DNA of 64,000 bases from Hydrurus foetidus (Eukaryota), in assembly GCA_900617105.1 (NCBI GenBank), contig UYFQ01000645.1:1-64000 (forward strand). Reading direction: 5' to 3'. Made by a program: the position numbers and the translations under genes. The notes under the pieces were generated by a model, which saw only the letters and a program-made list of their open reading frames with translations, did no database searches and was not told where the DNA came from. Within the stretch, counting starts at the first letter, position 1, and each line of letters starts with the position of its first letter. Below are positions 1,955 through 35,898 of this stretch, piece by piece.

Positions 1955-4900
1955 TTGCCAAACATGCAAATGCTTTTATCAACAATCATACCTAACGAGA
2001 TTGATGATTACTTACAAGTAACAATATATCTTCCTCAGACCCAATCCCCGGCTACCGCTTTGGCGACCGAGTTGACAGCCGCGACCGCGACTCCAACCGC
2101 AAAGACGACTCGCGCCAAGCGGAAAAGGACAAAGACAAAGATCGCCGCGATCGAGACCGGTCCCCACCCAAATCCTCCTCCAGCTATGGACCAAAATAAC
2201 GGCATGGCCGCCTTAGCCCAAATCGACACCGGATGTCAAGTTGGGGACGTAATCAATCGTAGAGTCCTTCGGGGCCTACGTGGTGAACCCCAACTCCGCA
2301 CCACCGACTCTCCCATATGGATGTGTTCGGGTCTAAATAATCAATGTATTGAATCCACTGCTGTCCTTGATATTGTTGTATCATTTAACAAAAACGATTT
2401 AAAATACACTTTTTCTCTTCCGGTGCGAATTGCAGAAGATTCCAAAGTCGACCTAATCTTAGGATTGGAGACCATAAAAAACTAAATTTGGTTAAAATCA
2501 TTCCGGAATTCTTCCAATCTCCGGAAAATATCCAAAATGAAAAAATTCACTCATTACAAAAACTGAATCAATCCACAAACATGGTATTAAACCACGTGGA
2601 CGTTCCACTCATGCTAGAAGCAGAGTCGGACACAGTTACGAGTATTACAAGTCCAACCTTACCTCCGGTTATAACTAGCCGAGAGGGGATAAAACCCTCA
2701 GACACAGACAGTCGATGGCAAGACGACCTGGTGGCTCGAGGTGCTTGTACAAGCAAGACATGCACTCCTTCATGTGGGTGTCCCACTAGCTTAGCTGCGG
2801 CAGCGGCTAGGCTAGATTCTGATGAGTTCATTTTGCACTCTACGGTCGAGGCAGCAGTTTTGTTGTCACCTCCCCGACAAAATGATTTAGGTGTAACAAC
2901 CGACAGGAGTCCGGAATTAGCTACTCCTACTCCCTCATCCAAGGCACCAGCCCAAACACGTGGTTTAGTTGCTGCTCTACTCCGGGAGCGTGAAGAACTC
3001 CCAGAGGTTCAACCCTTCGGACCCGAAGAGATTGACTACAAGTCGAAGGATACCTTCGCTCCTTTCCAAGACAATCCAACAGAGGACAAAATGTACCTCA
3101 TCGATCTCATACAAATCGATGGTACCCCTGAACAACAAGCAAAAATTAGAGCAATTTGTGTCAAACACATAAAGCTATTCAACAACAAACTCGGACCAGA
3201 GCCCGCGCGAATTCCCCCTTTGGACTACCCGTACGGGATCCAGAGTGGAAAGTTTTCAAAAACCGCGTAGCACCACGACCAACGTCTACACGAAAACAAG
3301 TCGAAATCCGAAAACAAGTTGAAACTATGCTTGAACAGGGTATAATAGTCAAATCAGAGGCATCATACTATTCGCAAGTAACACTCGCGGCAAAGCCAGA
3401 CGGTTCATACCGATTCTGTATTGACTATCGTCACCTCAACGACGCAACGGAATCAGCAAGCTGGCCAATCCCTAATATTAAACAAATGTTAGCAAGATTA
3501 GGTTCACAAAAAGCAGACACATTCGGTGTAATAGACCTCACAGCAGGATATCACCAAGCACCGTTAACTCTAAGTACACGTGTGTATACAGCTTTCATAA
3601 CATTTATGGGCATCTACCACTTTACCCGACTACCTTTCGGACCCAAAAGAGCCCCCTCATATTTCCAAGAAATGATGGCCTCAATAGTCCTTTTAGGACT
3701 AATATACCAAATCTGTGAAGTATACCTCGACGACATCATCGTTTATGGTAATGGATTTGATCAATTCTGCGAGCGATTAGAAATCCTTTTTCAACGCCTA
3801 GAAAACAAAAACATTTCACTAAAAGCCGCAAAGCTAAAGCTAAATGTGCGAATAGTTGAATATGTCGGTAGACAAATATCTAAAGAAGGTATAACTATGA
3901 GTTCCAAAAAATAAGAGGTGTGACCGACTTTCCTATGCCACGAAAGACGACTGAACTTAGATCGTTCCTCGGACTCACCAATTATTTTCGGGATCATGTA
4001 CCAAATCACTCCAACGTGGTAGCACCACTGCACAAAATTATAGATCACGCCGCGAAAAAGCAATCAATGCTAATCTGGACAGATGACGCCGCAAATTCTT
4101 TTCAAAAGATAAAAGATCTAATTGCAAAGAGTCCTTTATTATATTTCATACACGATACAGCGCCCATTACCCTCATGACCGATGCGTCAGATTACGGGAT
4201 CGGCGGCTATTTGTATCAAGAAGTCGACGGAGAAAAACAACTCGTCGCTCTCGTAAGCAAGTCTCTTACCAAGACTCAACTGAAATGGTCAGTAATACAA
4301 AAAGAAGCCTTCGCGCTATACTATTGCTGTACTTATCTCGACGCACTGCTGCGAGACCGTAAATTCACAATCCTAACAGACCACAAAAATCTTACGTTCC
4401 TAGAAAAGGATAAAAACGAGATGGTCGGCAGATGGCGTATGGCCCTGCAGGAACTAGAATATACGATAGGGTACATCCCGGGAAAACAAAATGAAATTGC
4501 TGACGCAATGTCTCGCCTATGTTTAAACAGAATGCCTCCTAAAACAGGAATAATAGCAGCAATTCTGACACACAAACCAATAACGACAGAGCAATATAAC
4601 CTAATTGCAACGTGCCACAACACGATAGTCGGACATGGTGGTGTACAACGCACACTGCGTAATTTAAAAAAAACAAATAACATATGGCTGGGAATGCGTG
4701 ACGCAGTAAAAACATTCATTAAAAATTGTCCGTGTTGCCAAAAGATGTCGGCAATGAAATATCCCATCAACGCATACCGGTACACAACCTCAACATACAA
4801 ACCAATGGAATGCCTTAACATAGACTTCATTGGTCCATTTCCCGATAAAGGATATATCCTTGTTATGATCGACACCTTCTCAAGGTTTGTCGAACTCTAC

Positions 4901-5880
4901 GCAACACCTGATGCAACAGCCAAATCAGCGTGCACAGCACTTGTAGAACACGTGGGACGCTACGGCTCACCATGTATACTTCGATCAGATAATGGACCCC
5001 ACTTCGCAAGCCACATCATAGATGAGTTTGTGAAGATTGTTGGAACAACACACAACAAAATATTACCATACTGTTCAGAAGAAAACGCTATCGTCGAGCG
5101 AATCAACAAAGAAATCAATCGCCATATAACCGCGTACGCATACGAACGCGCAACTACGGAAAACTACGCGGAAATATTACCGTTTGTACAAAGAATACTA
5201 AATTCAACCGTAAATGACCGGATGAAAGTGTCTCCAGCACAACTCATCTATGGCAACGCGATCGACCTCGACGCAAACATCCTCCTCCCGAGAGATGAAA
5301 TTGATTTAGATTTCGACTCACTCACACGGTCAACTGATAAAATGTTAACGTTGCAAGATGAACTCATCGAAATCACCGCACGTCTACTCAAAGAATCCGA
5401 CGACTTGCACAATGCACAACAACTTCCCAACGTCACACAGTTCGGAGTCGACACATTTGTACTTGTCCAACAAAGAACATCACCAGAAACGCGCATGCAC
5501 ACACTGTGGCGCGGCCCAATGCGAGTTGTCAGCCACAACTTCGCAGAGTATACATTACTCGATCTGGTAACACACAAAGAAAAGTTGTACCACATGACCC
5601 AACTAAAACCGTTTCACTTTGATCCTACGCATGTCGATCCAACTGACATCGCTCGTAGAGATTATCTAGAATTCTTCATAGAGGAAATCCTAGAAATGAA
5701 AGGAAACATAAGAGCATACAAATCACTCACATTTCATGTGAAATGGCTCAACTACACCCATGAACACAACACATGGGAACCGTGGACACACATGCGTAAA
5801 GCGCAAAAGTACATGAGTTCTTAATCAAAAAGAACCTCAAACACTTAATACCACGCGAATTCATCGCAAACTACCGTTAA
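1955..5880 (+). CDS. pol: G1 Pol (protease, RT, RNase H, integrase, chromodomain), split by several frameshifts
   Basis: QIDTG protease; RFCIDYR, LPFG, YLDD RT; TDASDYGIG RNase H; CHN..GH..CPCC and DDE integrase; WRGPM; FHVKWLNYTHEHNTWEPW chromodomain. Confidence 0.93.
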
Positions 5881-6089: not shown

Positions 6090-6306
6090 TGTGACCCGCA
6101 CACCCGTACGGGCTGTACGGGTACAGGCGTACGTTCGGACCGGATCGAGGACGATCCGATCCATCCGATTCATTGCCATGATACCTGCTGTGTTTACCTG
6201 TAAGCTAACCACATTGTTTCCATAGCAATAGCTCTCCCAGCTTCTTTTCCCTTGCTCCCGCTCCCAGCCGTCCCGCTCCCAGTGCCCAGATCCTGGCAAG
6301 GCCACA
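6090..6306 (+). repeat. 3' LTR of G1 (217 bp)
   Basis: Follows PPT at 6074-6086; TG...CA with imperfect terminal inverted repeat TGTGACC/GGCCACA; partner LTR not in window. Confidence 0.8.
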
Positions 6307-9300
6307 GTTTGTCATTAATAACAAGTCTCTCAGATGGAGGAAGAAATATTCCTCTGTCTAATTTGAGTATATTGCCGAAAAGCAATTGAGATGCAGAGAT
6401 TTTTAAACGATCACTGTGATTAGAATTTAAAATTCTTTGCACAAATGGTAGTGATGTTGAATAATCATCAAGCGTTACGATATCGTAAGTTAAAGCACGA
6501 AGGTGTCTATTAACTTCTTTATTCATGCGTTCAACAATGGCGTTTTCTTCTTTAGAATATGCTAAAGTAAGACAATGTTGAGTGCCGATAAGAGTTAGAA
6601 ACTCTTTGATTAAATCGGAAATGAAGTGTGGCCCCTTATCAGAACGGAGTTGGAGAGGTGCGCCGAAACGACAGAAATGTTGCAAAAGGCATTGAGCTGT
6701 CGAAAGTGCCGAAGCATCTTTAGTATGAAACAGCTCAACCCACCTTGTGAACGTATCGATAATTACGAGTACGTACCCCCCGTCTGGAAACGGTCCTATG
6801 AAGTCTATGTTAAGGCACTCCATAGGTGTGTAAGTAGAAGTCGAAAAGCCGTGAGCATGAATTGGGATCTTTAACATGCTCATCTTTTGACAACACGAAC
6901 AGTGATCTATGAACCACCTGACATGCTGTCGTTGAAACTGCCACACTTTGTTGTTGTCTTTGAGACGCTTTAAAGTGCGCTCAAGACCAAAGTGACCAAC
7001 TTGTGAATTGTGTACATTACTTATAGTATTGTATTGTTCACGAGTCAGTTTGAACTTTTCAATAATATTGGCAGACATGATTGTCTCAAGTGAATATTCT
7101 TGAGGATGGTCAATCATGTTGTTACGACAGAGTCGAGACATCGAATCAGCTATGTCATTGTTAACACCAGAAATGAATTCAATTTTAAATGAGAATTCTG
7201 ATAAAGCCATAAGCCAACGAACAATCATTGGATTTGAATGATTTTTAATGTATAACAAGTTACGATGATCGGTGCGTAAAGTAAACATCCGATCACGTAA
7301 TAGCGATTTTAAATACGTGCACGCAAAGAAAATAGCATATGCTTCTTTCTGTATAACTGCCCACCTAAGTTGAGCTTTGTTAAGCGATTTACTAACAAAT
7401 GCTACGGGCGTCTCTTTTCCGTCAACTAACTGAAAAGATAAGCACCTACACCGTAATCCGATGCATCAGTGTGCAAGTAAATCGGATCGGTGTCACTTAA
7501 AAAGTGCATTGTCGTGCATTTTGCAGTTTCAGATTTAATTAACTCAAATGCTGAGTCAGCTTCTGGTGTCCAAACTATTTTTTAGATTTATTATAATCAA
7601 CAAGCAACTGGTGTAACGGATATGTACACTTGAAGCATTTTTGATAAAATCGTGAAAATAGTTTACCAAACCTAAAAAACTTTTAAGTTGTTTAGATATA
7701 TCTGGTTTTGGAAAATCTAAAACTTGCCGTATTTTTTCTTGTGACATTTTTAGTCCTTCAGCAGAAAGGACTTTGCCAACATAATCAATTTCGGAATAGC
7801 CAAGATAACATTTATTTGGTTTAAGAAATATTTTATGTTGTCGAAAGCGTTGAAAAACAAGACGGAGTCTAAAAACTAATTCGTCAGTGTCTTTGCCGAA
7901 AACATTGCAATCATCAATGTACATTTCGCATATAGTGTAAATCAATCCAGCTAATACAACAGTTGCCATGGTCTGTTGAAAATAAGAAGGAGCTCGTTTA
8001 GGCCCAAAGGGCAGACGAGTGAATTGATACACGCCACAGAAAAGTATGAATGCAGTGTATGCGCGTGCTGCAAGTGTAAGCGGTGCTTGATGATATCCTT
8101 GAGTGAGATCAAGTGTAGCGAATACTTTAGCTTTATGAGCACCAATTCGACGTAACATTTCATTTATGTTAGGAATGGGCCATGATGCATCTTCGGTACA
8201 ATCATTAAGATTTCGATAATCTATACACATGCGTTTGGTTCCGTCAGATTTTGGAACCATAAGCACTTGGCTGTAATAAGCCGCATTTGATTTCTCGATA
8301 ATCCCTTGCTCTTCAAGTTTCGCGAGTTGACGTATAATGTCAGCTTGATTTGCAGTGGATTGAGGTCGAGGAGGTGTTCTATTACGGGAGACTTTCCATT
8401 TTACGTCATCCACGTTAAGTTCAAACGGTGGGATATCAGCAGGGCTAGCCGGAAGCTCACTGCTAAATATATCCCTAAATTCGTTACATAGTAAACGGAG
8501 TTTATTTTTCTGATCTTCATCACCTGCTATGTGTATTAGCGAGAGTGAATCTGTATCAAGAAATTCATTAATCCATGGTGAAAAGGAGTCATTTAATGAA
8601 TCATCAATTTCATCTTCATCAGGCGGCACAACTCCAAATAGTTGTTCCGACTCTTGAATTAACGAAGCTAGTATGACATGTGTTTGGGTGACTGCCGGAT
8701 CTTTCATTTGGGTTAATGAAAGATCTTTTGGGGTTCCTTTAGAGGTTTGCAAAGTCTCTTCAGGCTGACAGCCACATGTCATGACCACATCTTCAGAAGT
8801 CGAGACTCCCTTTATTGGGGTTGGTCGCGATGAAGTGCTGGATTTTATTTGATCTGGGAAAATCGAGAAGAGATCTAAATCTCGTATAATTTTTCTTCCC
8901 ACTATCAGATCAATTTGTGTTTGTTCTAAAACATAAGCCGTGATTTGGAAAGAAGAATAATTATTTAAATCAGGGCAAAAATAAGAAAGGTTTAAGTCGA
9001 TGGTTTCAGAAATTTCATAGCAATGATTATCTAAACCACTACAAACTTTACACGCTTTCTTAGATGATTTAGAAACATGTTGTGTTAAGTTAAGATTATT
9101 TATAACACGCCTAGCTATGAAATTGCTGGCGATCGATCCCGTATCCAATAGAGTGAAGACTCTATTTTTCTCTTCCAGCGAAGTTTGCTGAGAAATATGA
9201 GAAATAAAGAAAGGGATAAGATGTTTATCCGATGAAACGGAAGGGTTGTCAATTGACGACATATTAAGGTTGTAAACGTAGTCACCTTTTTGTTTCTTCG

Positions 9301-9424
9301 CGACACGAGTAGTGTCTGCTGACGAAGCAGCGGTCTTAGAAGACGCAGAAGAAGAGGAGGAAGCGGAAAAGGAAGATGTTCCGTACGCGTTTGGAATGAA
9401 CGTCGCTTTGGGATCGATCTTCAA
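6307..9424 (-). CDS. pol: G2 Pol (PR-RT-RH-IN), frameshifted and truncated by the G1 insertion
   Basis: ORF 7556..9424 (LLDTG, RMCIDYR, LPFG, YIDD) and ORF 6194..7288 (TDHRNL, HHCC, DFIGP, RSDKG, VERMN); homology stops at RLVINDKL. Confidence 0.92.
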
Positions 9425-9479
9425 AAGATCTTTGCCTCCTTCCGACTGAAGGAAAGGTTTCTCGGTACTGTTAAAGTAC

Positions 9480-10686
9480 GGAGAAGAGCCGAACCGACAA
9501 GTGGCTACTAAGTGGCCAAGTCTCCCACAGCCGGAACAGTGGGGTTTGTCAGATTGCTCAGGCTTCTCGTCCTCTCGTTGCCGTTTTTAATTCGTGGCTC
9601 TTGAGGAGGACGGTTAGAGTTTTTGATCTGGCGAGAATGATCGCCATAAGTCGGGTGAACGTCTACAAACCGTAAAGCATCAATTGCTTCTCGTAGCTTT
9701 CTTAGTTGCGCACGCCACACGAATCGAAAATCATCGACCGTGATAAGACGTGGCGTTCTATCGAGAGTGCGGTACAAAACTGACCTCCAATTAATGGGTT
9801 CAGCTGGCAACTTATCAATAAGAATTTTAGTTGCTGTTAACTGCATGGCAGCTGACACCTCAGGGAATGCATCGACAATATCAGCTAAAAGCTGGTCTGT
9901 CTTTTCTTCCACTGATGGGTTCTTCAGGTCAAATTGAATTTGAACCTGAGTAATGGATTCAATGAATCCTAGTTTATCCGTTCTGGACGTAGCAGTTGCA
10001 GGAATTGCCAAATTCAATTCTCTACAAAAATTCTGATTAGTCCAGTTTCTCCAGTTGTTACAACTGTCTCGACGATCAGGGTCGGTTGCAAATCGAAGTT
10101 GCAAAAGGGTTTTAAAAGATTGGAAGTTGCTGTGATGAACGACATCAACTGGCCGAAACGGCGTTCCATTCGAGAGGAGAACCTCTGAAACTCTTTGAAC
10201 TTCTTGCCAAGACGGCTTGGCGCTCAACTTAGGAGCTTTCTCACCAACTTGCACGTACTGAGTTGGTGGTGCCAAAGCACGTTGATTAGCAGATCTATCG
10301 ACCGAAGTCGACGTGATCTCAGCCGAAGCTGGTGTCGCAGCCGAAGCTGGTATCGCAGCCGAAGCTGGTGAAAGCGATAAAGCAGACAACGCAGAAATGA
10401 CAGGCACATCAATAGCAGACACGACCGCAGGCCCCGACGTCGGCTGAGACGCCGGCGCAGACAGGTCTCCGGCGGGGTCCTGAATCGCAGGTGATCCAGG
10501 AGACTCTATGTCTTGGACATTGCGCTGCGTATGCTTGAGATACGCCTTCCGTGCTGCGACGGCGACAGCGCGCGGCTGAGCTCGTCTTAAGATGGCGCTG
10601 GTGTTGTCGGTGGTGTTGGTGGTTGCCTTAGCGTTGGTGGTTGCCTTAGCCGAGGCTTTGGCACGGATGCGGCGAATTGCCATGAT
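9480..10686 (-). CDS. gag: G2 Gag, with the CCHC knuckle in a shifted frame
   Basis: Part of ORF 9508..11295 from MAIRRIRAK; minus strand near 9495-9545 reads KPHCSGCGRLGHLVATC. Confidence 0.75.
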
Positions 10687-10759
10687 CCGAAAAATTTCCC
10701 GAGAAAAGATGGATGAGTAGAAAGAAATAATTTTGGTCGTAGGAACCAAATATCGATAT

Positions 10760-11044
10760 TGTGGTCGTTGGTGACCTGAAGTGGTCGTTGGTGACCTGAA
10801 GGCGAAGGACGAGGACGATGGACGAGGACGGAGGGCGAAAAACGAAGATGGAGAAGATGGAAGAGTAGTCTTATAGTTTACAGCGAGAAACAAGCAGTAG
10901 TATCTACAGTGATGTGTACTCGCGTGGAAACGAAAAGAAAAGAAAACTGTACCGGACTTTGGGTCCGTTCTAGAATCTACAGTACAGGTATAGTATACAG
11001 TCACAGTGTATCCGTACATGCAGTACAGATGCAGTGAGGCTACA
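10760..11044 (-). repeat. 5' LTR of G2 (about 285 bp)
   Basis: Minus-strand TG...CGACCACA, the same 8-nt end as the G3 LTR; internal 20-bp tandem duplication at 10761-10800; abrupt junction to Copia coding sequence at 11045. Confidence 0.78.
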
Positions 11045-14223: not shown

Positions 14224-14284
14224 TGACATCGTAGAGTACCGTACGTACTCCAGTGTAATGTACGCACGCACAGAGGGTAACCAC

Positions 14285-14898
14285 TGTCCAGGATTCAAGG
14301 TTTAAACTTGCATGGTTGTATGTATTACAATAATTTCGCTCTGACAACATCGACACCAGACCAATGCGCGCCACGCCTGTCGGGTAGAGGACCTGTGGCC
14401 CGGATTCCTGACGATACAGATGCCTTTTTACTCTGCCGAACGTACACAAAAAGGACTCGAGTTCGAACTCGTGACAGCGTGACGATATTTTGATTTATCC
14501 AACAGACGTATACTTTTGAATCCTGTTTTGAATGAATGATGCGTACGACTCATGAAGTAAATGATATGAACTTCAAAACTGGTACCTAGATAGATAAAAG
14601 ATGACATGTATGGTTGTAGTCTCCTGTTCGACGATCAACGCATACTTCTTTATCTCGTAATTAAGAAGCCACACTAAGTGCAACCACCCAACCTTCAGCA
14701 AAGGAAGATCTTCTGTCGACAGGAAAGCGCGCCTGAAGCCACAAGAACTTTCCTGCTAAAGGTACCAGCTTATATTACAGAAGGATAAAGGATAGAAGAC
14801 GACTTATTCTGAATTTGGTCCAACCTTCCCAGTTTCACCGTATCAGTGAAACGGTTGTAACCAACGAACAAGTCCACGGATTTGGAAAATCCCAATCA
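14285..14898 (+). repeat. 5' LTR of C2
   Basis: TG...CA direct repeat of 20078-20691. Confidence 0.93.
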
Positions 14899-14978
14899 TA
14901 AAGAAGTAACTTACTTAAGCGAAGACATCGCTTAGCACAAAGCCCAGAGAGCATCTGGCCAGAGAGGATCTGAAGAAA

Positions 14979-17900
14979 ATGTCCGGACGCGGACTTGAAC
15001 ACGATCAGAGAAATCGTCTACGGCGAGGAGGCAGAGGCCACGGCAGAGGACCACCTCAAATCGCCCGCGAGGCTCCAAAGCCGGAGCCGAAATTTAAGGG
15101 AAGTAATCCGGAACTTCCTTCCCTAAATTATGGTGCCTCACCAAAGGAGAATAGGCCCATCGAATTTTTGCAGCTCTTCGGTGAGCACTGCGCAATAAAC
15201 TACAAGTCTTGCATTGCGCAAGCTTTTTGGACGTCACCTCCGGCATACGGAGATGTGGAAGAAGAGCCAACCATGCCCGAAACAATCCCAAGCACAAACG
15301 TCGGAAAAGCAATATTGGCTGAATTTACAAATGACAGAAAGGAATGGAAACTAGAATCGAAGAAAATCGCTGAGCATAAAAGATCTGTATTCGCCCTCGT
15401 CTACGCCCAACTGAGCGAGTCGTCAAGGACGGAGGTTAAAGACGATGAGGACTGGGAGCAGAGCTTCATTGACCGTGACCTACTATACCTCATTCAAAGA
15501 ATTAAGGCGACTCACATTGCGCGTCAAAGCGGTAACCCCGGCCAAGACATGGAGAGAGTACGGACCGCTTGGGCACTTATGAGAATGACCCCGTACGAAA
15601 CAAGCTTCACTTTCAGGAAAAGAGTCGAGGACTACCAACTTGAAAGAACATCGGTCGGCCTACCAATAATCCCCGATGATGAGCTTGCCATCGGGATCCT
15701 AAACCGATTGGACATGTCTCGCTACTCATCACTGGCCAGAGATTACTTAGACAATGAGCGCAGAGGCATTTTCCGAGCTACCCGAACTTCCTTCTACATT
15801 GTGGAAAGAGATTAAGGATACCCAAATCGTACGTTTCAGGGGTATCCAGAACGCTCAACTTCACGGAGTGTATTTGTCCAGAGCTGATGATGTAGCAGAA
15901 AAAGGACCAGCTCGTGGTAAAGGTCGTTGTGAACATGGTGGTCGCGGCGGTAGAGGTGGAGGACGAGGTGGAAGAGGCGGTGGAAGAGGTCGCGGAAAAG
16001 ATTTTCCTTACCGCCCTGCGACAACACCTTCTGCACCTATCAAGCCAGCTGATATCATTTGTTGGACATGCGGCTTGAAAGGTCATAGGTCCACAAACTG
16101 CCCCAATAAACCACTTAAGTCCTCAGAATCTCTAGCTGAGAGCAATATTTTCCTGACCACGGTGACCAATTTCACTCCAAACGCTGAAGGCGATTACGAT
16201 TATGATGCATCTCATCCAGATGCCTCAGACACCCAACTGTTCTTGACATCTCGATCCCCGCAAACTAAACACTCCATACTTTTGGACACTCAATCCGCCA
16301 TACACCTTGTGTCCGACCGCGACTTGCTCATTGGAATTAACTCAACCTATCTCAGCACAAGGCATCACTGGTGATAAAATCACAGTTGTCTTTGAAGGAT
16401 TGATCAACAAGTTAGGCATTAAGGCCTATCATAGCACCAAGGTCGCCGCAATTCATTTTGAGCTACCACAAGCTCCAGGAGTCTCACTCCGTCACATACT
16501 GCGAGCACGATGATACCTTCGTAGCCATTCCGTTTCTAATTGGACCACACCTTAATTTTACTTGTGTCAATGGCCACTATACACTCGACATGAGTACAGT
16601 AGTTCAAGTGTATATGACAGCTCGAATCTCAAAGCCATGAAATACACCAAACGCCAGTTGCAGACGCCAGCGCAGCCTACGATTTCATAGTTCGAATGGG
16701 ATTCATTAGCTACAAAGCAGCTGCAGAAGTTGTCCAACGAGGCAGCATTACCAACCTTGGTTTCACAAGAGCAGACCTTGTCAACGCTCAAGATATCTAC
16801 GGCACCCCTGCCGCATACCAACTTGGCCAAGGTACAAACAAAACACTCAATCAATCTCAGGAGACCTTATTCCATTCATGAGTCAGTCAATCAAGAGCTC
16901 CAAGTCGACTGTTTTACTTCCTTGGGAATGTTTTCTTCCTGAGTATTTCTGTGCTGATTGGACTAATCATGATCACACATCTTGGTTCCGGCATCGAACG
17001 TAACAAAGACAAAGCTGCTACTGACAAAGGTGATGGATTTCGTTCCAAAGCAGGACAAGCTTTACTCCAACACATTCAGCAATACCAAAATAAGGGCTTC
17101 TCCATCACACGTGTCACCACAGATGGTGAGTCATCCATCACAGCTACTCGACCACACATTGAAGCCCTTGGAGTAGACCTCAATGTTCTAGGTCATGGAT
17201 CGCATACCCCACATGCTGAGTCGGCAATAAGGCATGTGAAGAACAAAGCACGTTCTACTATGCATAGCTTGCCCTACATCCTTCCAGGAAAGCTAGCAGT
17301 TGCTCTTATCGGTTTTGTCGTTCACACGATCAATATGGTCCCTAAAATCAATTCCCCTGGTCATCTCACTGCTCATACAGCGTTCCTAGGCCGTATACCC
17401 AATTTCAACCGAGATGCTCCCTACTCCTTCGGTACTACAGGATTCCTTCAACGTGCGCATCATCCTCAGTATAACGCAGTATCTCCACGTGCTGACTATT
17501 GTATTTGGATTGGGACCACGCACAATCTCGCTGGAACACACCGATGCTTTAACCTAGATACTTTACGCGAAGTCAGAGGGGATGTCTTTCGTCCAACACA
17601 CATCACCCCTGCTGCTATCGCACGCCTGACTACTCTCGCGGGAGCTGGACCACCATCACAAGATAACACACACTCGCATCCTCAAGAGCCTCTACTTGAA
17701 AATCCAAATGCATCTTATCCACTGCCTCCAGATCGAGGGGTAGACTCCGACGTTCCTGAAGTCAGTGATGACATATCAGCCGATATTATCATGGCAAACG
17801 AACTGGACTCAGAGGACAATATGCTAACACTACCACTTGAGACTCCTACTACTGTCGACCACACAGTAGAGGGTTCTCAGCCAACACTCGACATACCCGC

Positions 17901-19640
17901 ACTATCAACAACTGTCGAGGTTAACGCATCCGAAGATGAAGAGCAATATTTTCCACTCCAAGAAGTAGCTCGTTCACAGGCCGCCGAATTAGTTAACATT
18001 CGAAACTCCAACCGATATGAGTTGCGTCCTTCAACACAAATCAAACATGTGTACTCAACACTATCCATCAAAGCTGCAAGAAAATTATATGGAGAAGAGT
18101 TGTCAGACAAAGCTACTAGAGATGAGCTCATGACTTGCATCCAGAAAGATGTGTGGGAATGTCTTGACCCAACTTACGTTACAAAGAACGCCATCCCTTC
18201 AAAAATGTTCCTCACGCCCAAGTCGCTCCCTAGTGGCAAGTTGGATAGAGTTAAAGGCAGGATAGTGGTGGGTGGACACAGACAAGACAAATCACTGTAC
18301 GAAGACAAAGAAATCTCATCTCCTACAGTCGCAATGACCTCAGTCCTAATCACAGCCGCACTTGCAGCCAAAGAAGGCAGACATGTGATGACACTTGATC
18401 ACAAAGCCGCATATTTGAATGCGGGTATGAAGGGACCACCAGTGGAAATGCTGATATCCCCTGAAGTCGCTGAGATCCTCTGTGACATCGACCCAAAGTA
18501 CCGAACTTTCTGAAGAGCAGACAAGAAAATTGCAGTCAGACTCAAGAAAGCGTTGTATGGATGTGTCCAAAGTGCCATGCTGTGGTACGAAGAACTTACA
18601 TCAACGCTCGAGCAGATGGGATTCATTCGGAATCCATATGACGCATGCTCGTTCTTAAGACTCCATGATGGATCACATGATCGCATCCTCGTCTACGTCG
18701 ACGACTTGTTCATCACTTCGGCTTCAGAAGAGAGACTCCAGGAAATAGCAGAAAAGTTGCAGTCCAAATACGACTCCGTCACGTACAAGACCGGAAAGCA
18801 GCACGATTTCCTCGGCATCCATTGGGATTTCTCTATCCCTGGCCAAAGCAATCTGTCAATGGATGGATATATTCAAGATATTATCACCAAGTACAATGTA
18901 ACAAAGCAGTGCAGAACACCAGCAACAGACAGACTATTTCACACAACGGCAGACAGCCCACTCCTCACCTCCTGACAAGAAAGAATTGTTCCGCTCATGC
19001 GTGATGACACTGTATTATCTCGCCAAGCGATCAAACCAGAGATCTGACCACGATTTCCTATTGTGCAACAAGGATATTAGGACCGACTGAGGAAGACGAA
19101 TCAAAACTTGACAGATTATTGTCCGACCTTCTGTTCTCTAAAGATCACAAAATGATCCTCCGAATCGGATCTGATGTCACCCTCAACTCTTTCGTTGATC
19201 TCTCCTTTGGCCTCTATGAAGACGGAAAGTCTATCACGGGAATTGCTATCAGACTCGGCGACGCTACCATCTACGTGAAATCTGGGAAGCAGAAAATTGT
19301 CACAAGATCATCAACTGAAGCAGAGTTAGTTGGAATATCTGATGCTCTATCTCAAGTATTGTGGACACGCGAGTACCTTATTTCTGCGGGAATCAACATC
19401 GGTCCCGCGATCATGTATCAAGATAATCAATCGACCATCTTTCTCGCCACCAAAGGCCGCTCTACAAGTGAAAGAAGTCGACACATTAAAATAAGATATT
19501 TTTTCGTGGCACATTACATTGAGACCAATGAGATCAGATTGGAATACCTACCTACTGGACAAATGGTCGCGGACATCCTGACTAAGCCGCTCCATGGCAC
19601 GCTTTTCAACAACTTCGCCAAGAGATTGACAGGCAATTGA
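14979..19640 (+). CDS. gag-pol: C2 Gag-Pol polyprotein, broken by multiple frameshifts
   Basis: CWTCGLKGHRSTNC knuckle; LLDTQS protease; TTDGE/AESAIR integrase; KGRIVVGGHRQ, DHKAAYLN, LYG, YVDD RT; SSTEAE, DNQS, ADILTKPL RNase H. Confidence 0.9.
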
Positions 19641-20077
19641 CCTCAACGAAGGACACGACAACTCTTACTGCAACATGGAGGTCTAATCATTTCAACTACC
19701 GGATGGGGACTCACTCAGATTCCTCTAGACAGTCAGAACACCCACGCGGAGGAAGGGAGGTGTATCACCGGTGCCGCGTGTTAGACCCATTTAGAATAAG
19801 AGCACTGCGGAGAACATTTGCAGAAGTTAGATTGGAGTGTCAATGACAATCGTGCTGGATCAGAGTTGTCGTGTCGTATCGCGTTGGCCAAGTCTGTCAC
19901 TCGTGTACTACTACTCTATCGTATCGGATTAATATATGTACTGTTTTCAACGAGACAGCTTTGAAAGAACCGGATTATCGAATAGCGCAGCGGCGCAAAT
20001 TTTTTTAAGCTACAAACGGCCAAAGCCACGAATTTGTTTTACTGAATCTTCAGAGAGTACGTCCGCATCAGGGGGTA

Positions 20078-20691
20078 TGTTCAGGATTCAAGGTATAAAC
20101 CAGCATGGTTGTATGTATTAGAGTAAATTCACTAAGATGCTACAAATTCAAAGAACCGCGTGCCACGCCTGCTGGTCTGGGGGGCTGCGGTCCAAAGGCT
20201 TTCTGAGACGGACCCCCGTTTTCCCTGCCGAATGTACGCAGAAAGGAGTCGAGTTCGAACTCGTGACAGTGTGACGACTTTTTGATTTATCCAACAGACG
20301 TTATACTTTTGAATCCTGTTTTGAATGAATGATGCGTACGACTCATGAAGCAAATGATATGAACTTCAAAACTGGTACCTAGATAGATAAAAGATGACAT
20401 GTATGGTTGTAGTCTCCTGTTCGACGATCAACGCATACTTCTTTATCTCGTAATTAAGAAGCCACACTAAGTGCAACCACCCAACCTTCAGCAAAGGAAG
20501 ATCTTCTGTCGACAGGAAAGCGCGCCTGAAGCCACAAGAACTTTCCTGCTAAAGGTACCAGCTTATATTACAGAAGGATAAAGGATAGAAGACGACTTAT
20601 TCTGAATTTGGTCCAACCTTCCCAGTTTCACCGTATCAGTGAAACGGTTGTAACCAACGAACAAGTCCACGGATTTGGAAAATCCCAATCA
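20078..20691 (+). repeat. 3' LTR of C2
   Basis: Preceded by AGGGGGTA, followed by TSD ACCAC. Confidence 0.93.
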
Positions 20692-23222: not shown

Positions 23223-26200
23223 CTATATATTAATGTGCGCTGAAATGGGCTTCGATAAGTTATGAAAGGACGGTGAGGCTGGATCGATGAAAATTGATGC
23301 GTCCAACTCAGGAATATTATCGTGGTCTGGTCCAATGTCAACGTCATGTGTGTAAACAGCTCTTCCCTTTCTCAGACTATTGGATTTCCAGATAACGCAG
23401 AGACAGGCGAATATTATTATAACGATAGTGGCGAAAAACGATCCTACTACAGATGCCGTTATCACTGTGACAGATGTGCCTGAATATATGTTAATATTGA
23501 GTAGAAACAAGTGAAAATATTTTTAACATGCAAGCAGTATCTTATGCAGTTATTATTGAATAATTAAACTTTTATGAACATGATGTAAACACGTAATAAT
23601 CATTTATAATTCAATTATGAAACCATCGCTATACCCCTTACAAACACACTATGTAATACAACAAAACAAAAATAGAACAAAAATAAACAGAAAAAAAGAT
23701 GATGACACTAATAGAATTAGATGCAATAAGAAGAAAATGCACTAACCTTCAACAGCACTAAAAAGCGACACCACAGATGGACTGGGATCAAATGTTGGAA
23801 ATGCTGTCGTGGGAAATAATGTCGGTATAAAAGTAGTTGGGAAGAAAGATAGCTGTAAAGTGGTTGGAGAAGCCGGGGGAGGGAGGGTTGGAAGATAAGA
23901 CGGGGAGAAAGATGGAGTTGTAGTTGGTGTGTGGGATATACTAGGCTTGACTGTTGGATATAGAGTAGGACCCATCGTTGGATTCGTCGGACTACTGGAC
24001 GGTGTGTTAGTTGGCTTGAGTGTTGTGGGGACTGATGTTGGTTTGGCAGTCGATGTAGGTGTGTATGACGGTCTTTGTGTGGGATAAGTAGATGGAGTAG
24101 AAGTGGGTTTTACTGTCGGTGTTGGTGTTGGCAATCTACTAGGTATTGAAGTGGTGGGAGAAAATGTTGGCGCTACAGCTGCACCATTTATAGCACTGCC
24201 TAATTTGACTAAAATCTGATGCATTTTCCCGTAATTTGGTGATCCTAATCCACAAGCAGGGTCCCATCCTGGTGCCGCGTAAAACCCTTGGGGGCAACAA
24301 GTGCCTCCTATCACACATTTGTTGTGACCTGAAGTAATGTCATTCATAAAAGATGCTCCGTGTGCGTAGAGAGCAGGATTAACCCATCCAACTGACCCTT
24401 TTCCTATAGCCATTCGAGCCGCATTTATATTGGAAAAAAATCCAGCAACAGCTGGGCTTGAGGCTGATGTGCCGCACACAGTTCCCGTCTGACCACCCAT
24501 ATACACCGCGTAATTCACACCAGCAAGAGATATATCCGGAAACCCACGGCCAGATACGGCATACCCGGCCACTGGGCTTTGATTGGCAGCAGCAGCTGAT
24601 GTGAAGTATGAAGAAATTGCGTTTGTTTGCCAATAGGGCATGGGGTAGTAGCCTGAGAAACCACCACCTGTGGTGATAACTCCGTCTGTGTCGCCTTGAC
24701 AGACTTTCTCAGGTTGGATTGGCTCAAGCTGTAATCCCTATGGAGGAGAGGAGAGAGGAGAGGAAAAGTGGCGAGAACAAAAGAGGAGTAAAAGTACAGA
24801 CGATGGAAGAGCAAGATAGGAAGGAGTGTATGACAATTGGAGATACTAGAATAGGGAGGGGATGTGGTAAATTTGGTAGATGAGGCAGAAAGCGGTGGGG
24901 GGGGGGGGGAGAAGGGAAAGGACAGGAGAGGAGATACAAAAAAGGGAAGATAATAAAAAAGGGAGGGAAGTAAAGTGATAAAAGATAAGATAGGAGATAA
25001 AAGGAATCAAAAACACGAAAGAGACATCATCTGTGCAGTCAAGCAAAACAATCATGAAAACTATAACAATGTCATTGCAAATAATGACTCACCGATGTTG
25101 CACCAACGGAAACGATGTAAGGGTTGGTGGCCGGCCAGGACGGACGATAGCCGCATTGAGCCGTATTATCCCGGGCATATCCGCTATTCGCTCCATCATC
25201 TCCTGAAGCAACAAATATCGTGATACCCATCACACCTAGTTTAATCGCTTGAAATGTAAAGGCGTCATGCCCGCCTGGTGATACCAAATTTTCATACGCA
25301 CCCCAACTAATGCTCAGCACTAAAGGAGGATTAACCATTTCAGCAACGAGAATCAAGAAGTACGTGAAGTCTCCCGGCACATACCAATGATAGCTAGGAG
25401 ATGCTTGAGATGTTGCCATAATGTACTGAATATCTAGATTGCTCTCACCGCACTGAGAATGATTTACTACACACACAGTGTCATTATCATGCCCATTTAT
25501 TGGAATTGCGCTTTGTATCTTCAAAGAATATTCGGTCTGCAACCGTGTCAAATCCTTAGGGCTGAAATTTTGCCCTGCTGTTGTGTAGATTGCTTGTGTT
25601 GATTTTTCGCTTCCTTGATAATTTGACATATTGTAGAAAATACGAATTTTCCTAGGACTGACTGCTTGCCAGTCGCCAGCTAAGCGAAATTTACTCTTCT
25701 CTGTTTTGGCAGTAGGTTTCTTCACCCTATGCGATCCGTCTTTACTGCTGTGCGTGATGAGCGGTGTGTCGATTGTGTTGAGAACGTGCATGACGTGTGG
25801 CCCTAGTTCCACTGGAATAGAATAGTCCTCCGCTCTAATAATTGCCTCAACTTTCCCATCGGTCTGAGTCTGATGAAAAGTGTAGAAATCAGTGTTGAAA
25901 AGTCTCTCCCAGACTGAAATCGGTGCTGTGGCAGTAATATATTCGCCGTTTATTGTCTCAGATATCGTAGTAGCTCCATTCATTTGGAGGTATGACAAGA
26001 CAATATTGCGACCTTCCGGATTAGAAGTCATTTCCACTACTTCTTTCATCGTCATGTGCTGACCATAGTTCTCGCTCTCTGGATCTGAGACGTCGTGGAG
26101 TATGCGAGTCAGCTCATCCATATTTCTTTGTTGAATCATAAACACGACTTCGTGTAGATGATCATGGTGCACACGTTGTCCTTTGAGAAGATCATCTCGG

Positions 26201-26271
26201 GAGGATATTAGCGGTATACTATCTTTGAGGATGTGTGTTTCGGCAGCATGTTTTTTGCTCGATGGCCTCAT
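23223..26271 (-). CDS. Sedolisin/tripeptidyl-peptidase-like serine protease (family S53) with P/T/S-rich stalk and C-terminal TM helix; exons about 26271-25093, 24737-23747, 23479-23223 (5' exon(s) probably further upstream)
   Basis: Prodomain (VSDPESENYGQH); GESNLD Glu/Asp; ASGDDG; SVGAT|..TGGGFS joined by a GT-AG intron; GRGFPDIS; GTSASSP catalytic Ser; GWDPACGLGSP; PT repeats; hydrophobic VVGSFFATIVIIIFACLCVIW. Confidence 0.9.
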
Positions 26272-27163
26272 TCCGGTTGATCCTGTACTTGGCTCTGATG
26301 CACTTATCTGGATTATTTGATGTGAGTCACTGATGCGATTATAGGTCTCAGAGAAAGTAGCGCATGTTGAGAACGCGCAATGAGGGTAGATGCATCTTGA
26401 TCAAATCGGCACTGCCCTCACTGAAGTCTGGTAGCCATTGTCTTCATGGTAGAAGCTCAAGTCGGTATGTCTACTTTTTGTGAGTTGACTGCAGCTCCAC
26501 CAGAGGTTGGAAGAGGTGGAGAAAGTCGGAAGTTGGAGGTGATCTGAAATTCAACGTATCTCAATCGCATGAAAATCATTCCATCCTTGAAATGAACTGG
26601 ACGTTCCACATAAAAGTCGCACCACCGGTTTCGTTTCGTCGGAAGTAGAAACGGGGAGTCAGATGGATCCTGGATCCAGATCACACCTAGAAACGAGATT
26701 CTTACCGTTGAAAATTAAATCAATTTGCCTTTTTTCTTTATTCCCTGTACTGTAGTTCTGCTGAACCAATACTGGACACTGAAAATTATAGAATTTGCTA
26801 AATATCAATTTGCCGTGATAGTAATGCACGTCAAATTATTGGCGCTGTGTACAATGTCACGAATTTGAATTCTTCAGTACTTCTGAGTGAAATAAAATAT
26901 AGACTTCGATTGTTGTCAACTAGTTGTTAATATATTTAACGAATCGATTGTAATAATTAAAGTAATATTAAATAACATCAAAACAACTTCGTTCACATCA
27001 TATCGTTTCTTTTCCTAATTCTAACTTTTTTTTATGTTCTTGTAGTAGAGCAATTATTGCGCTTCTATTTCTCGCAACCTTGAGAGCCGTCAATCCTTTC
27101 TGAAAACGCGTAAAGAATAATACAAAATAAAATGAGTACTCACGATAATTACATATCAGCGTA

Positions 27164-30100
27164 TTAATGGTCTACTAATTTCTGTTCGAAAAATTCGAAT
27201 TAAAATGTTCATCGTCTCGGTCACAATGAAATAGCAGTTCAAGGGTGGTGTTTAATTCAATTGTCGTTTTTAATCGGGTACCAGCCCCCCACACAACAAC
27301 ACACAGCATTTTTTATGACTCAAAGTAAAACCATCCCCCTGGGGGGCCGTCCAGCATGAAAAATGCTGTGTGTGTTGTTGTGTGGGGGGGCTGGTACCCG
27401 ATTAAAATCGACAATTGAATTAAACATGACCCTAGAGTTCGAAGATGATCTTGGATGTATATGTCTGAAGAATGTATACTGATAAATGGTCTTCTCCGGG
27501 GTTATTTTCGTACACAAAAATACTGAATCCCTGTTTAGTTGTGACCTCGACACTATTCGTAATATACAAATTGCATCAAAAAATACATACAAAATAAAGT
27601 GACAATACGCAACAATCAAACAGAATCTAGTGCATTAATGGACTACTACATAACACTACAGAAGAATCTAATAAACAGTAAGTTTTACCTTGTCGATAAC
27701 ATCCATATTTGCGTTGGCCGTAAGTAGCAGTTTTACGGCTTCTTCGTGTCCCCCTCCTGCGGCCATAATTAGCGGTGTTCCGCCATCCTATATAGGTGTG
27801 TGAAGATGTTCAGATCTGACTATTTATTTTTCAGTAGACTTTTTTCTTGTATATAGATTGACATGCACTGTTTGTTTTATTGTTATTAATTGTAATTATC
27901 ATCGTAATTAAATCGTTTGTTGCCGTCAGTGGTGTCCCACCATTCTATGTAAAGATGATAACTTTTATTTATCGTGTTTTAATTGCAATTGTTATTGAAA
28001 GCGTTACTGTAAGCGGCAGAGTAATTGTTGTTTACAAACGATGAGATAGCGATTCATTGAGCAGTTATCATCCTTAGTGCTACTAGAGTGTTTCTGTAAC
28101 CGATTTAACACACTTTCGCACCACACGGATTGAGCAGCGTGCAGTAACGGTGAATTTGAATTTGAGTGCACAGAAGACAAGAAGCCGTGCGAAAAATGAG
28201 CGAAATCGGGTTGGCAAAAACAATCTATTATAATTGTTTTTGATGTTGCAGTTTCTATAAGTACACTCGTTTCTGTTAGGGGTCTTCCATCATCCTATAT
28301 CGAGGTAGGAGATTTACTGATTTATTTTGTAGTAACAATAGTTGTTGTACGCTTTACTTTTAGTGCAATTAAAATTAAAATTAAAATTGAAATTAAAATT
28401 GAAATGGCTAATAGGTGAGATGTTGATTAAATACTATTTATTATTATAATTCGTTTTGTAGACTTTCTTATTATTGTGTATTATATTATATTATATTATA
28501 TTATATTATATTATATTATATTATATTATATTATACTATATTAGTTTTCGTTATTACATCTCTTGTCATAATTATTTATAAATGTTGTTGTTACAGTCAT
28601 TTTTTTAGTTTCCGATGTTGTGTTATGAGAGTTGTAATGTTATCATTTTGGATTTTATAAAGCTTAGGAGACCGTTTTATCGCTGTTAAAACTATTACAT
28701 TTGTCACTGTCATTATTGTTGCATCTACTTTTAATCTTACTTCAACGATACTGTTTTATGTAACTTATGTTATCATCATGTTCTTTTATTATGTGATCAT
28801 TACTTCCATCAGGTGCCTGCATACTACTCCATGATTGTTCTTACACTACTTATCTACATCACATTGATACCCTCTTAGATAGATCATGTCATGTCATGTC
28901 ATGGCATGTCATGTCGGTCGTTCAATATCACATTGCACTGTATGATTTTACCAGGAAAGAATAGAATGCCCAATAAGTATGAACGAATTCAAGGGGGAAA
29001 TGAAATGGTGATTTCAACTATGCTCAAACCTCTTTTCGTTCTATGTTTTGGACATTTTATTCTGTCCTGGTAATATATCAGCCATTGTGCGTAGCTCCGC
29101 ATTACGTGTTATTGTGTTGCATCGTAATAGGACATATCAAGACCCTTCCCCTCCTCTGTCTTGACCACCCTCCATGCACACACGTAACACACACACTCTC
29201 TCACGCACACAAACTCACTCATATACATACACACAAATACACTCCCTCACACTCACATACAACCCCACGCACACTCATATCCACACGGGACAATCTCACA
29301 CGCACATACACACAAGTACACACACGTACGTGCATGCTCCAGCACATACATCCCATCCCATCATCGCACCTCATCCCACACTACACTACACCACCCTATA
29401 TCACATCACACCACACTACCCCTCCCCACACTACACTGCACCACACCCCAACCAGCCCCACCACCCCTCAAACCACTCCCTCACCTTATCTACCGTTTCC
29501 ACGTCAGCCCCCGCCTTTATCAACGCATCCACTACTTCATGGTGACCGTGATATGCAGCGCTAAATAAAGGCGTGTAGCCCATCTAACATGTGATGTTTT
29601 TATAAATGTGATTAGAAATGTTAAATGGTTAATATACAGTATGTCTAAGTGCAATTAGAAGTATTAGATGCTAACTAAAATGTAGCATACAATTGTAGAT
29701 ATAGTTACAGTATAAGATGATTACTAAAATGTAGCATACAATTGTAGATATAGTAACAGTATCAAATGTTTGATAAAAATGTGTCCGTAGATAAGATAAG
29801 AAGTACTACATGTGTAATATGAAATATGTATGTAGATATCTTAATTAAATAAGTAATCTAAAACGAAATGTTATTGAAGATATGATTAGAGGTGTAATAA
29901 AAAGATGTAAGATATAGATCAAGGGACGTGTTTAACTGCTGACACACTTCTAATCTGGACCCATCCCCTACACACGACAATCCACACACACTATCTGTAC
30001 CGTACGTTTTCAGTTTTCAGTACTGTACAGTCAGTGCGTGTGGATTGTCGTTTATAGGGGTGGGGGGGGATCCAGAAGATCAGCAACTAAACACGTCCTT

Positions 30101-33100
30101 TCAGACGCATTTAAAGTCAAGGGCATTGATATATAATATGTACATGTCTAAGTAGTGGTCTAGATGTTTTTATGCATACGTGTACTTTATTTGACTCCAT
30201 TTTTTTAATCCGTAAATGATAATATTTGCGTTAAGATATCAATGCATAAAATAAATGTATTCTTCCATATTTTTTTGTGCTATTTCATTTCAACGTGTAA
30301 ATGGTGTTTTTCACAGTCATGAGCCATCATAAAAAATCATTGTGGGCGTTTTATTTTATTTTTAATCTCGTACCCTATTTTTCATTTCCAGTGCTGCCCC
30401 AGCTTTTATCAGAATTTCCACTGCATTTAATTTGTTTTCAAAAGATGCGAGTAGCAGTGCTGTCGCTCCCTCCTATGATTGAAAATATCAACGAGTTCCA
30501 GTAAAATTTGAGAAAGATGAGATTATTTATTAGATATGTTAGTCTCCCTTTAGTTAATTAGTCAGTCAGTCAGTCAGTCAGTCAGTCAGTCAGTCAGTCA
30601 GTGTATCAGTCAGTTAGTCAGTGCATCAGTCAGTGTGTCAGTCGATCTGTCAGTCAGTCAGTGCACCAGTCAGTGAGTCAGTTGATCTGTCAGTCAGTGC
30701 ATCAGTCAGTTAGTCAGTCAGTCAGTCAGTGAATGAGTCAGTCAGTGCATCAGTCAGTTAGTCAGTCAGTCAGTCAGTCAGTGAATGAGTCAGTCAGTGA
30801 GTCAGTCAGTCAGTGAGTTAGTCAGTCAGTCAGTGCATCAGTCAGTTAGTCAGTCAGTCGGTTAGTCAGTCAGTCGGTTAGTGAGTTAGTCAGTCGGTTA
30901 GTCAGTCAGTGCATCAGTCAGTGTGTCAGTCAGTGAGTTAGTCAGTCGGTCAGTCAGTCAGTGTATCAGTCAGTATATTAGTCAGTCAGTCAGTCAGTCA
31001 GTCAGTCAGTCGATCTGTCAGTCAGTGCATCAGTCAGTGTGTCAGTCGATCTGTCAGTCAGTGCATCAGTCAGTTAGTCAGTCAGTCGATCTGTCAGTCA
31101 GTGCATCAGTCAGTGTGTCAGTCGATCTGTCAGTCAGTGCATCAGTCAGTTAGTCAGTCAGTCACTTAATGTATCAGAAATCACTATATGCCCTCCCTCC
31201 CTCCCTCCTTCACTTACCTTGTCTTGTGCATCCACTTTGGCGCCAGCTGAAATCAGTAAATCCATCACACCTTCATATCCGTTAGCAGCTGATAACATCA
31301 ATGACGTTATTCCCTCCTACAGGGAAGAGGAAAGACAATAAGAGGAGGATAGAAGAGAAAAAGAGAGATGACGAGAGGAGAAGAAGAGAGAAGAAGAGAA
31401 GTGCAGTGTCATATAATGCAATTAAATATAATATAACATCGTATTATATCATGTAATTTCAATCTTATTTCTTCAGGACATTTTGATGCTCATAAAGTGT
31501 AGTTTACTATGACTTGCTGAAATGCTGAATGAAAGGACGTGGTATCGCAACATAATGTCATAAGAAAGAAATCAAAAAAATTCATCTGTTGGCAAAACAC
31601 TAGGATGATCGTTAAACAAAACGAATCTTATCGACAATCGCACACGTCCTTTCCTCCTTTCATCTGCCTGTTTGTGCGTCCTCTCTTTCTTTAGTATGTT
31701 TGTACACGTATTTTTCCACGCACACACGTACAGTGCAGCACTGTGCAAAACAGTACAGTACAGTATAGTGTAGTATAGTACAGTACAATGCAGTACAGTA
31801 CAGTATAATGCAGTACAGTACAGAGCAGAGCAGTGCAGTACAGTACAGAACGTACTTTATCGACAACGTCTACATTGGCTCCTCCTTTCAAGAGGGAGGC
31901 AACAATATCTTCATGCCCTCCTCCCGCAGCTCCAATCAGAGCAGTGAAACCGTTCTGGAGAGTAGAGAATAACGGAATAAAATGAGATCGGATCAGCGCT
32001 GTGAAGGCATCCCGATGAAGTGGGTAAATTGCGTCATCACAATCACGCAAAATAGAGTGACTCACTGCATAATTATACCGGAACAGAATAATCCATTAAA
32101 AATTAGCCGGATTATGCAGTGAACTACGGAGACTACTCAGACAGAATAATTACTACTATGTATCAAAATAAAATTAAATGGAATAGTTGAGATAAGATCA
32201 ATGCTGTAAAATTGTTCTGGTGACGAGAGAAATGATGTTGAGTAACATCTTATAAAATTGATCTGTCGTGTTAAAATGGCGTATGTGATTCAAATTTATG
32301 ACAGGCAATGTGATGTGATATTTTAGGACTCTTTTTTATCGCATCGTTTTATGTCATTCAGTTTCTTATATCATAAATGTTAAATATTGGTATAGGAGGA
32401 GATGTAACGAAGGTCGATGAAATGAGATAAAAAGAAACGAAATAGGATTATATTAATCAGTATTAAACACGATAAGATAAGATTAGACGAAATAGGATTA
32501 GATAAAATAAGAGGAGATGTAACTAAGTGATATGAAATAATACGAAATGAAATGAGATAAGAAAATTTAATATTTATGAGATAAAAAATTAAATGACGTA
32601 AAAAAATTACGATAACTTTTTTTCGTCACATCACATCATAAAATGGAATCACATACGTCATTTCATCATACATAGGTCATCTCATACGTAAGAAATAATT
32701 TTTAAACACATCATTTTATCAAGCGAAAATGCTCCACAAACATCGCTGCATCGAATCAAGGCTCCTCATCTATTGCAGATCCATTTAATCTGAACCTATC
32801 CCCTATACACGACAATCCACACATTATTTGTACCTTACAATTTGTGTGTGTGGACTGTCGTTTATAGGGGTGGGTTCAGATTAAACGGATCTGCAAAGAC
32901 GAAGAGCCTTGAAATCGAGTTGCATATACCATTGAATTAAATGGAAATGATCAACACACAACATTGCATCATGGTCACTTACTCTGCATAGGTCATCATA
33001 TCACATGATGTCTCCACACACATCATCACATCACATCACATCCATATAATCTTCACACATCCTTGCACCATACGTCATTACATACGTACTTCTTTCTCAG

Positions 33101-35300: not shown

Positions 35301-35808
35301 TGTCAGTCCAGCATATTCATGCTTGATCTGTTAGCATAGTTTCATCTGTAGATTAGCATTCACATGTCACAAGTAGTGTAGCGCTTCCTCACCCAAAACA
35401 CCTCCATACACTGTTGTGTACATACGCTAATCGTTCTTCTAGCGATATCCCCCTTCGGGGCCATCACCAAGCATCCGGTTTTTCACCACCAAGCATCCGG
35501 ATTTCCACCAGGTATCCGGTTTCCACCAAGCATCCGATTTCATGAGCAGCGAGGGTTCCGCCCATTGCTCAATCGCCAACTTGAATATTCGCTGAATATG
35601 TTTCCACTTCGGCGATCACCATTTCATGCACAATGGATGCTTTGCTTTGCTTCTTTGATGGTTGTCTTCTCTGATATCATCGCCAGTTGTTTTACTACTT
35701 GATCGTTGTAAGTAAACACGTCTTCCGAGACCACTTCCATCAGCCAGTCTTTCCTTTGCGCTTCCGCAGCCAACAGGTAGCTCGCTTCACTCCACAGTCT
35801 GACTCACA
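35301..35808 (+). repeat. 5' LTR of C3 (contains about 4 tandem CACCAAGCATCCGG-like units)
   Basis: Direct repeat of 41778-42285. Confidence 0.95.
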
Positions 35809-35819
35809 TGGTAGCGATT
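35809..35819 (+). promoter_or_regulatory. Canonical tRNA primer-binding site of C3 (probably initiator Met)
   Basis: TGG complements tRNA CCA; TGGTA implies A73/U72 as in eukaryotic initiator tRNA; tRNA identity is inference. Confidence 0.65.
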
Positions 35820-35898
35820 GCATAGAAAGTTCAGCAATCATCGATATAGTATCAATATATCAACGGTATCTCATCACAACAGATATCTCAAGTCGGCC

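Follow-up and report, generated by a model that had tools for sequence, protein, structure and literature searches.

The window, by which we mean the whole 64,000-base stretch of DNA analyzed here, is a nest of LTR retrotransposons that includes three gypsy elements, designated G1, G2, and G3. Pfam matches place reverse transcriptase (RT), RNase H, and integrase in gypsy order in the pol region of all three. A chromodomain follows the integrase in G1 and G3 and in most of the 120 homologues among the matches listed; the end of the G2 integrase lies beyond the window. Because their RNase H-integrase regions are 50-55% identical, G1, G2, and G3 are assigned to one lineage. The 3' LTRs of G1 and G3 and those of relatives are of the TG...CA type with a polypurine tract, the exceptions being a CG start in the G3 5' LTR and a TA end at 6 of the 53 junctions surveyed below.

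The preliminary description of this DNA had seen no obvious similarity between the LTR bodies or the Gag proteins of G2 and G3. This holds for the LTR bodies, among which no significant similarity was found in comparisons of G1, G2, and G3 (best E 0.084), and for N-terminal Gag; it fails on the protease side, where a stretch of G2 matches G3 (36% over 83 aa). The features that carry the argument are these:

10749-10760, minus strand: perfect 12-bp palindrome of G2 at the primer-binding-site (PBS) position, beginning at the terminal A of the 5' LTR
10760-11044, minus strand: 5' LTR of G2, 285 bp, TG...CA, with a putative 3' end
10744-10748, minus strand: G2 bases 3' of the palindrome, with predicted pairing to the LTR end at 10762-10766 across a bulged C (a weak signal family-wide)
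9508-10683, minus strand: gag reading frame of G2, its ATG 77 nt past the LTR end
6307-9586, minus strand: fragmented pol of G2 (protease motif, RT, RNase H, integrase), with frameshifts and a break at 6306/6307 made by G1
6090-6306, plus strand: 3' LTR of G1, which in other copies runs on into 12-bp palindromes
3150-5824, plus strand: pol of G1 with RT, RNase H, integrase, and chromodomain (Pfam)
44293-44501, plus strand: 5' LTR of G3, its end fixed by the twin 3' LTR
44501-44512, plus strand: perfect 12-bp palindrome of G3, from the terminal A of the LTR
47222-50503, plus strand: pol of G3 with RT, RNase H, integrase, and chromodomain (Pfam)
50897-51105, plus strand: 3' LTR of G3, with no palindrome in the flank beyond it

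G1, on the plus strand, is inserted head-on into the G2 integrase, and G2 copies free of this insertion have contigs that join at 6307. G2 is itself surrounded by a copia-like relic, other copies of which begin at 11046. Two further copia elements are present: a young one at 35301-42285, with 508-bp LTRs that are 99% identical and a TGG-type primer site at 35809, and one at 14260-20691 with mosaic LTRs (the first part about 76-86% alike, the last 390 bp or so near 100%), in which neither TGG nor a palindrome follows the 5' LTR. A MITE-like sequence at 51278-51856 has inverted arms of 88 bp (95%), and one and the same 12-bp palindrome closes it at either end. A Harbinger-type DNA transposon with degenerate inverted ends (55250-59287) encodes a Plant_tran/DDE_Tnp_4 transposase at 55467-57081 and also holds two opposite-strand ORFs without a Pfam match.

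A host gene resembling sedolisin/tripeptidyl-peptidase I (Pro-kuma_activ) lies at 25072-26400, and its close relatives among the 120 matches listed are metagenomic only. Simple and short tandem repeats (ATTAT, GTACA, 8- and 12-bp units) at 28470-33000 are possibly subtelomeric or centromeric. A search for tRNA genes within the window found none. DNA of the window occurs in freshwater, biofilm, and sediment sequencing runs, and RNA runs contain 6-11% of its words. Relatives among the matches listed come from metagenomes, and the host is presumably a microbial eukaryote.

Palindromes at the LTR ends of G1, G2, and G3

The preliminary description had reported a palindrome overlapping the terminal A of the G2 LTR, with a counterpart in G3, and both lie where it placed them. 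In G2, the perfect 12-mer palindrome is AATATCGATATT at 10749-10760. Read on the minus strand, it comes after ...CGACCAC, and its first base is the A of ...CGACCACA, with which the 5' LTR closes. In G3, AATAGATCTATT at 44501-44512 starts from the last base of the 5' LTR, the end of which is set by the 3' twin (44294-44501 matched to 50898-51105). Because the window holds 22 perfect 12-mer palindromes, a single one means little; position is what counts, and relatives are therefore needed.

For G2 we infer an LTR 3' end at 10760. This LTR starts with TG at 11044, shows 4 of 5 terminal inverted matches, and ends in a motif that agrees with the (G/A)(G/A)CCAC-A of its relatives. In all four sequencing runs the bin within the LTR exceeds the bin straddling its end 4-11 times in contig depth, and the flanking copia relic has contigs that begin at 11046 in three of the four. 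An exact 20-bp tandem duplication, which the preliminary description did not record, occupies the G2 LTR end (10761-10800). Contigs of run X4 depart from the window at 10779 with letters resembling those past the second 20-bp unit, so other G2 copies likely have one unit. An exact search of viral contigs returned no match to the G1 LTR end and one to the G2 LTR end; the latter (L082) was rejected as a chance, unrelated phage sequence without a palindrome.

A palindrome of 10-12 bp had also been predicted to follow the G1 LTR, and public contigs do continue this LTR into perfect 12-bp palindromes. Contigs leaving it at 6306 read ATACCGGTATT in X1 (15 contigs) and X3 (8 contigs), with agreement near 0.75, and ATAGATCTATT in X8 (2 contigs, agreement 0.95), each a perfect 12-mer when the terminal A is counted. 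In run X4 the majority line of 7 contigs is mixed and not palindromic (agreement 0.6). These continuations, drawn from two studies, are all majority lines at a likeness of 85%, in which subfamilies may be mixed.

The junction across relatives of the three elements

A query alignment of 30 pol proteins led to 81 loci, 80 of them the best of 163 from a metagenome scan and one from viral contigs. The 5' LTR end was located in 55 of the 81. Among the 26 loci left out of the junction table, most have contigs that stop inside gag, pol, or the LTR, three (L017, L027, L053) end in a 3' LTR plus flank, and two (L059, L060) are ambiguous. With G2 and G3 added to the 55 relatives, the curated LTR-end junctions total 57. 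In 54 of them a perfect palindrome of 10-16 nt runs from the terminal A (10 nt in 9, 12 nt in 34, 14 nt in 7, and 16 nt in 4), and these 54 comprise 32 different sequences. The three imperfect cases (L003, L009, L035) are each broken at the outer pair alone. Some loci are near duplicates, and the distinct junctions number 53. The terminal A is paired in 51 of 53 cases, and the position one step further out in 10 of 52.

For most junctions the palindrome was already in sight when the end was located, which makes the inner pairs there circular evidence; four independent checks therefore matter, namely twin LTRs, a blind rule, core symmetry, and the G1 continuations already described. In G3, L023, L042, L044, and L051 the LTR end is set by a twin LTR; the palindrome is present in five of five, and the flanks of the corresponding 3' LTRs have none. 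Two of these palindrome-bearing LTRs are very short (L023:124-198, 75 bp; L044:157-237, 81 bp).

The blind rule takes a purine tract plus TGT, then 60-540 nt, and scores palindromes after CA or TA; it selects 41 loci. At a threshold of at least 10 nt it finds a palindrome in 35 of them, compared with a mean of 4.7 in 200 shuffles (maximum 12), and at 12 nt or more in 31 compared with 1.3. One of the 35 matches (L027) is a chance match in flank. The six misses are four loci consisting of 3' LTR and flank (L017, L042, L051, L053) and two with a broken outer pair (L003, L035). When only the four outer pairs are demanded, cores of at least 4 nt are symmetric at 24 of 28 sites in the LTR stretches so selected compared with 2 of 18 sites in pol, and among four-base cores 17 of 18 are symmetric. 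The LTR-end palindrome is thus a lineage-wide rule that is selected or mechanistically maintained.

That symmetry rather than sequence is kept, as first proposed from G2 and G3, is borne out by the 32 distinct palindromes and by sister elements that differ in matched pairs. The sisters L070 and L074 (91% identical protein) carry AATTGCAATT and AATCGCGATT, and L051 and L054 (84%) have TATA and ATAT cores; paired differences also separate L006/L008 (83%), L016/L024 (80%), and L022/L030 (79%), the sister relations all being read from a tree without an outgroup. Central 4-mers come in 13 versions, every one symmetric. The suggestion that cores serve as family-specific labels finds no support: G1-type LTRs carry two cores, CCGG in two runs and GATC, the core of G3, in another, and the exact 12-mer of G2 recurs on separate branches in L007, L030, L061, and L067. 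Computed duplex energy is -1.4 kcal/mol for G2 with G3 compared with -10.9 and -11.6 kcal/mol for the self pairs. Because different cores pair so poorly with each other, incidental discrimination between unlike cores is possible according to these calculations.

The variety of sequences bears on two other explanations. The site could bind an internal host tRNA fragment or another small RNA, its symmetry being incidental. Priming by half tRNAs without TGG does exist in copia lineages, as the available portion of a plant survey records (PMC6317226). A fixed primer, however, would fix the sequence, whereas at least three cores occur in one host and 32 sequences overall, all symmetric; we regard this explanation as extremely improbable. 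Alternatively, the palindrome could work once DNA has been made: it might serve plus-strand transfer, or help integrase to process the U5 end by forming a snap-back or two-fold site. It does overlap the CA end recognized by integrase, and in the established pathway plus-strand strong-stop DNA would end in the palindrome sequence. A protein site would nevertheless be expected to fix the sequence, in conflict with 32 sequences in four lengths, and minus-strand priming would stay unexplained, which leaves a DNA-stage role improbable.

The priming site and its possible operation

The TGG-type PBS against which the preliminary description had set its reading did not appear in G2, G3, or their relatives: TGG lies within 0-5 nt of the 5' LTR end at 0 of 53 junctions, whereas the young copia element in the same window has one. 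A displaced TGG site after the palindrome, seen at 3 of 53 junctions and in G1, was considered and rejected; pairing with the CCA of the LTR explains it better, and the loss of the base at 10742 in other G2 copies also counts against it. A Tf1-type self-primer in the LTR was not detected across 40 junctions, where the mean best match is 7.35 of 11 compared with 7.41 in shuffled sequences; G2 (7 of 11) and G3 (6 of 11) score as shuffles do, and a single junction reaches 10 of 11. Nor does any of 49 junctions have a downstream inverse complement (the CHSeq2 of GalEa elements) reaching 8 of 9 within 60 nt, the mean again being that of shuffles.

Predicted folding favors two molecules over one. 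Palindromes alone give a mean of 0.0 kcal/mol as hairpins and -10.3 kcal/mol as dimers. The central bases stay symmetric, which would be needless in a hairpin loop; since in addition the dimers fold and the hairpins do not, the palindrome likely pairs two RNA molecules. At every length its left edge sits on the last base of the LTR, where minus-strand synthesis must start, and the duplex therefore likely marks the priming site.

One RNA could nonetheless prime in cis by folding back into a hairpin with a 4-nt loop and a bulged stem, to be cut 3' of the hairpin or otherwise opened. G2 with its flanks is predicted to form just such a bulged hairpin, of nine pairs (-3.9 kcal/mol), and a weak outer stem across the bulged C recurs family-wide (79 of 208 pairs compared with 62 when permuted, p 0.0015, for the best of 20 offsets in related loci); the authors of the GalEa study also propose hairpins (PMC5445492, available portion). 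This outer stem may faintly echo the duplexes that flank the Tf1 PBS. Yet a loop needs no complementarity, and 17 of 18 four-base cores are symmetric; the palindromes alone form no hairpin, and cleavage in cis would sever R-U5 from the genome. Priming in cis accordingly has a distinctly outside chance.

A palindrome that pairs two RNAs might also dimerize genomes for packaging only, in the manner of Ty3 and retroviral dimer signals, with priming left to another primer or site. Core symmetry fits this explanation equally well, and short 5' palindromes drive dimerization in Ty3, Ty1, and HIV-1 (PMC11381356, in the part available). Known dimer signals, however, sit in loops and are additional to a PBS (PMC5445492, likewise in part), whereas here the palindrome takes the PBS position with its edge fixed at the LTR end, the searches above revealed no other primer site, and TGG follows the palindrome at just 3 of 53 junctions. 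No hairpin showing the palindrome as a loop was found in 28-nt folds. We therefore consider a role confined to dimerization rather unlikely, though it deserves more weight than the other explanations set against priming in trans.

We favor priming in trans, to which we give a probability of roughly 55%: two packaged RNAs would pair at the palindrome, and RNase H would cut one of them, which would then prime minus-strand DNA on the other. The palindrome would hold the two packaged genome copies together in place of a tRNA site. By analogy with Tf1, where RNase H reportedly cleaves an RNA duplex (work ascribed to Levin in 1996), the element's own RNase H would cut one strand near the 3' edge of the duplex, and the R-U5-palindrome fragment of the partner genome would become the primer. 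The cut may fall between the last two bases of the palindrome, such that the terminal A gets copied; this placement is suggested by the outer pair, the only one ever broken. The plus strand would then copy the partner's palindrome, so one cycle would suffice to mirror a single mutation, and matched changes would, we infer, be easy to reach.

Some points count against priming in trans. The duplexes, rich in AU, are of modest stability (-6.2 to -16.9 kcal/mol). Cutting one genome would also detach its 5' end, a cost that no element is known to pay in trans. The stem beside the PBS on which Tf1 depends has only the weak echo described above. If priming in trans is true, genome dimerization would be linked to priming, the element would no longer depend on host tRNAs or be exposed to silencing by tRNA fragments, and annotators would gain a simple LTR-end rule for elements that PBS-based finders miss. 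The lineage amounts to a natural mutagenesis series, in which sequence and length vary while core symmetry and register with the LTR end stay constant, and the question is therefore reducible to a short set of bench tests.

Comparison with known systems

These results bear on the start of reverse transcription in LTR elements that lack a tRNA site, among them Skipper, GalEa, and the plant elements (6%) in which one survey detected no PBS (PMC6317226, available portion). In the main texts searched, which include few subscription journals, we found no description of such a palindromic site in gypsy elements, and the available portions of PMC7472051, PMC5371799, and PMC6934838 do not describe one. 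The papers compared below are likewise cited for the portions available.

Dictyostelid Skipper elements resemble the present lineage as protist chromoviruses that have neither TGG nor a Tf1-type complement and whose priming is unexplained (PMC5006619). They differ in that a polypyrimidine tract replaces the PBS, and the word palindrome is absent from the main text of that paper as available. Ty3 (DS/PAL6), Ty1, and the retroviral DIS share a short self-complementary 5' sequence that pairs two genomes (PMC11381356), but theirs are 6-nt loop sequences, additional to a tRNA PBS and out of register with the LTR end. Tf1/sushi elements come closer in kind: they are chromodomain gypsy elements that use no tRNA, their own RNA can serve as primer, and duplexes flank the PBS (PMC4600332; bioRxiv 10.1101/2022.12.06.519325). 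In Tf1, however, the primer is the 5' end of the transcript and the PBS is non-palindromic, and the lineage described here has no such complement in its LTR.

The nearest counterpart is CHSeq1 of GalEa, a fungal Ty1/copia group: a 9-bp sequence, palindromic with the final A of the LTR, in elements that have no PBS and carry a downstream complement (PMC5445492). As in our lineage, it directly follows the 5' LTR, no tRNA PBS is present, variants keep symmetry, and a bulged extension occurs at the junction. GalEa belongs to the copia superfamily, whereas the gypsy lineage has RVT_1 and an integrase after RNase H. CHSeq1 is 10 nt long with two sequences in 85% of families, compared with 10-16 nt and 32 sequences here, and the CHSeq2 of GalEa has no equivalent at our 49 junctions. 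Its authors propose a hairpin and not an intermolecular primer, according to the text available. As a separate observation, the 10-mer ACTAATTAGT, identical to one GalEa CHSeq1 variant, occurs twice, 17 bp apart and after CA, at L070:5124-5150; the pair lies behind other ORFs upstream of the gypsy LTR and possibly marks the junction of another element.

Because GalEa has it, the anatomy of the site is already in print, for another superfamily and with no mechanism given in the portion available. Judged from sequence, the gypsy site may be a variant of tRNA-independent priming for which GalEa sets the precedent. We see even odds that the two represent a fourth start of reverse transcription, beside the whole tRNA, the half tRNA, and Tf1-type priming in cis: genomes paired by a palindrome, one of them cleaved to prime the other, in which the sequence would drift while its symmetry repairs itself, and which gypsy elements and the fungal GalEa copia elements would have acquired independently of each other.
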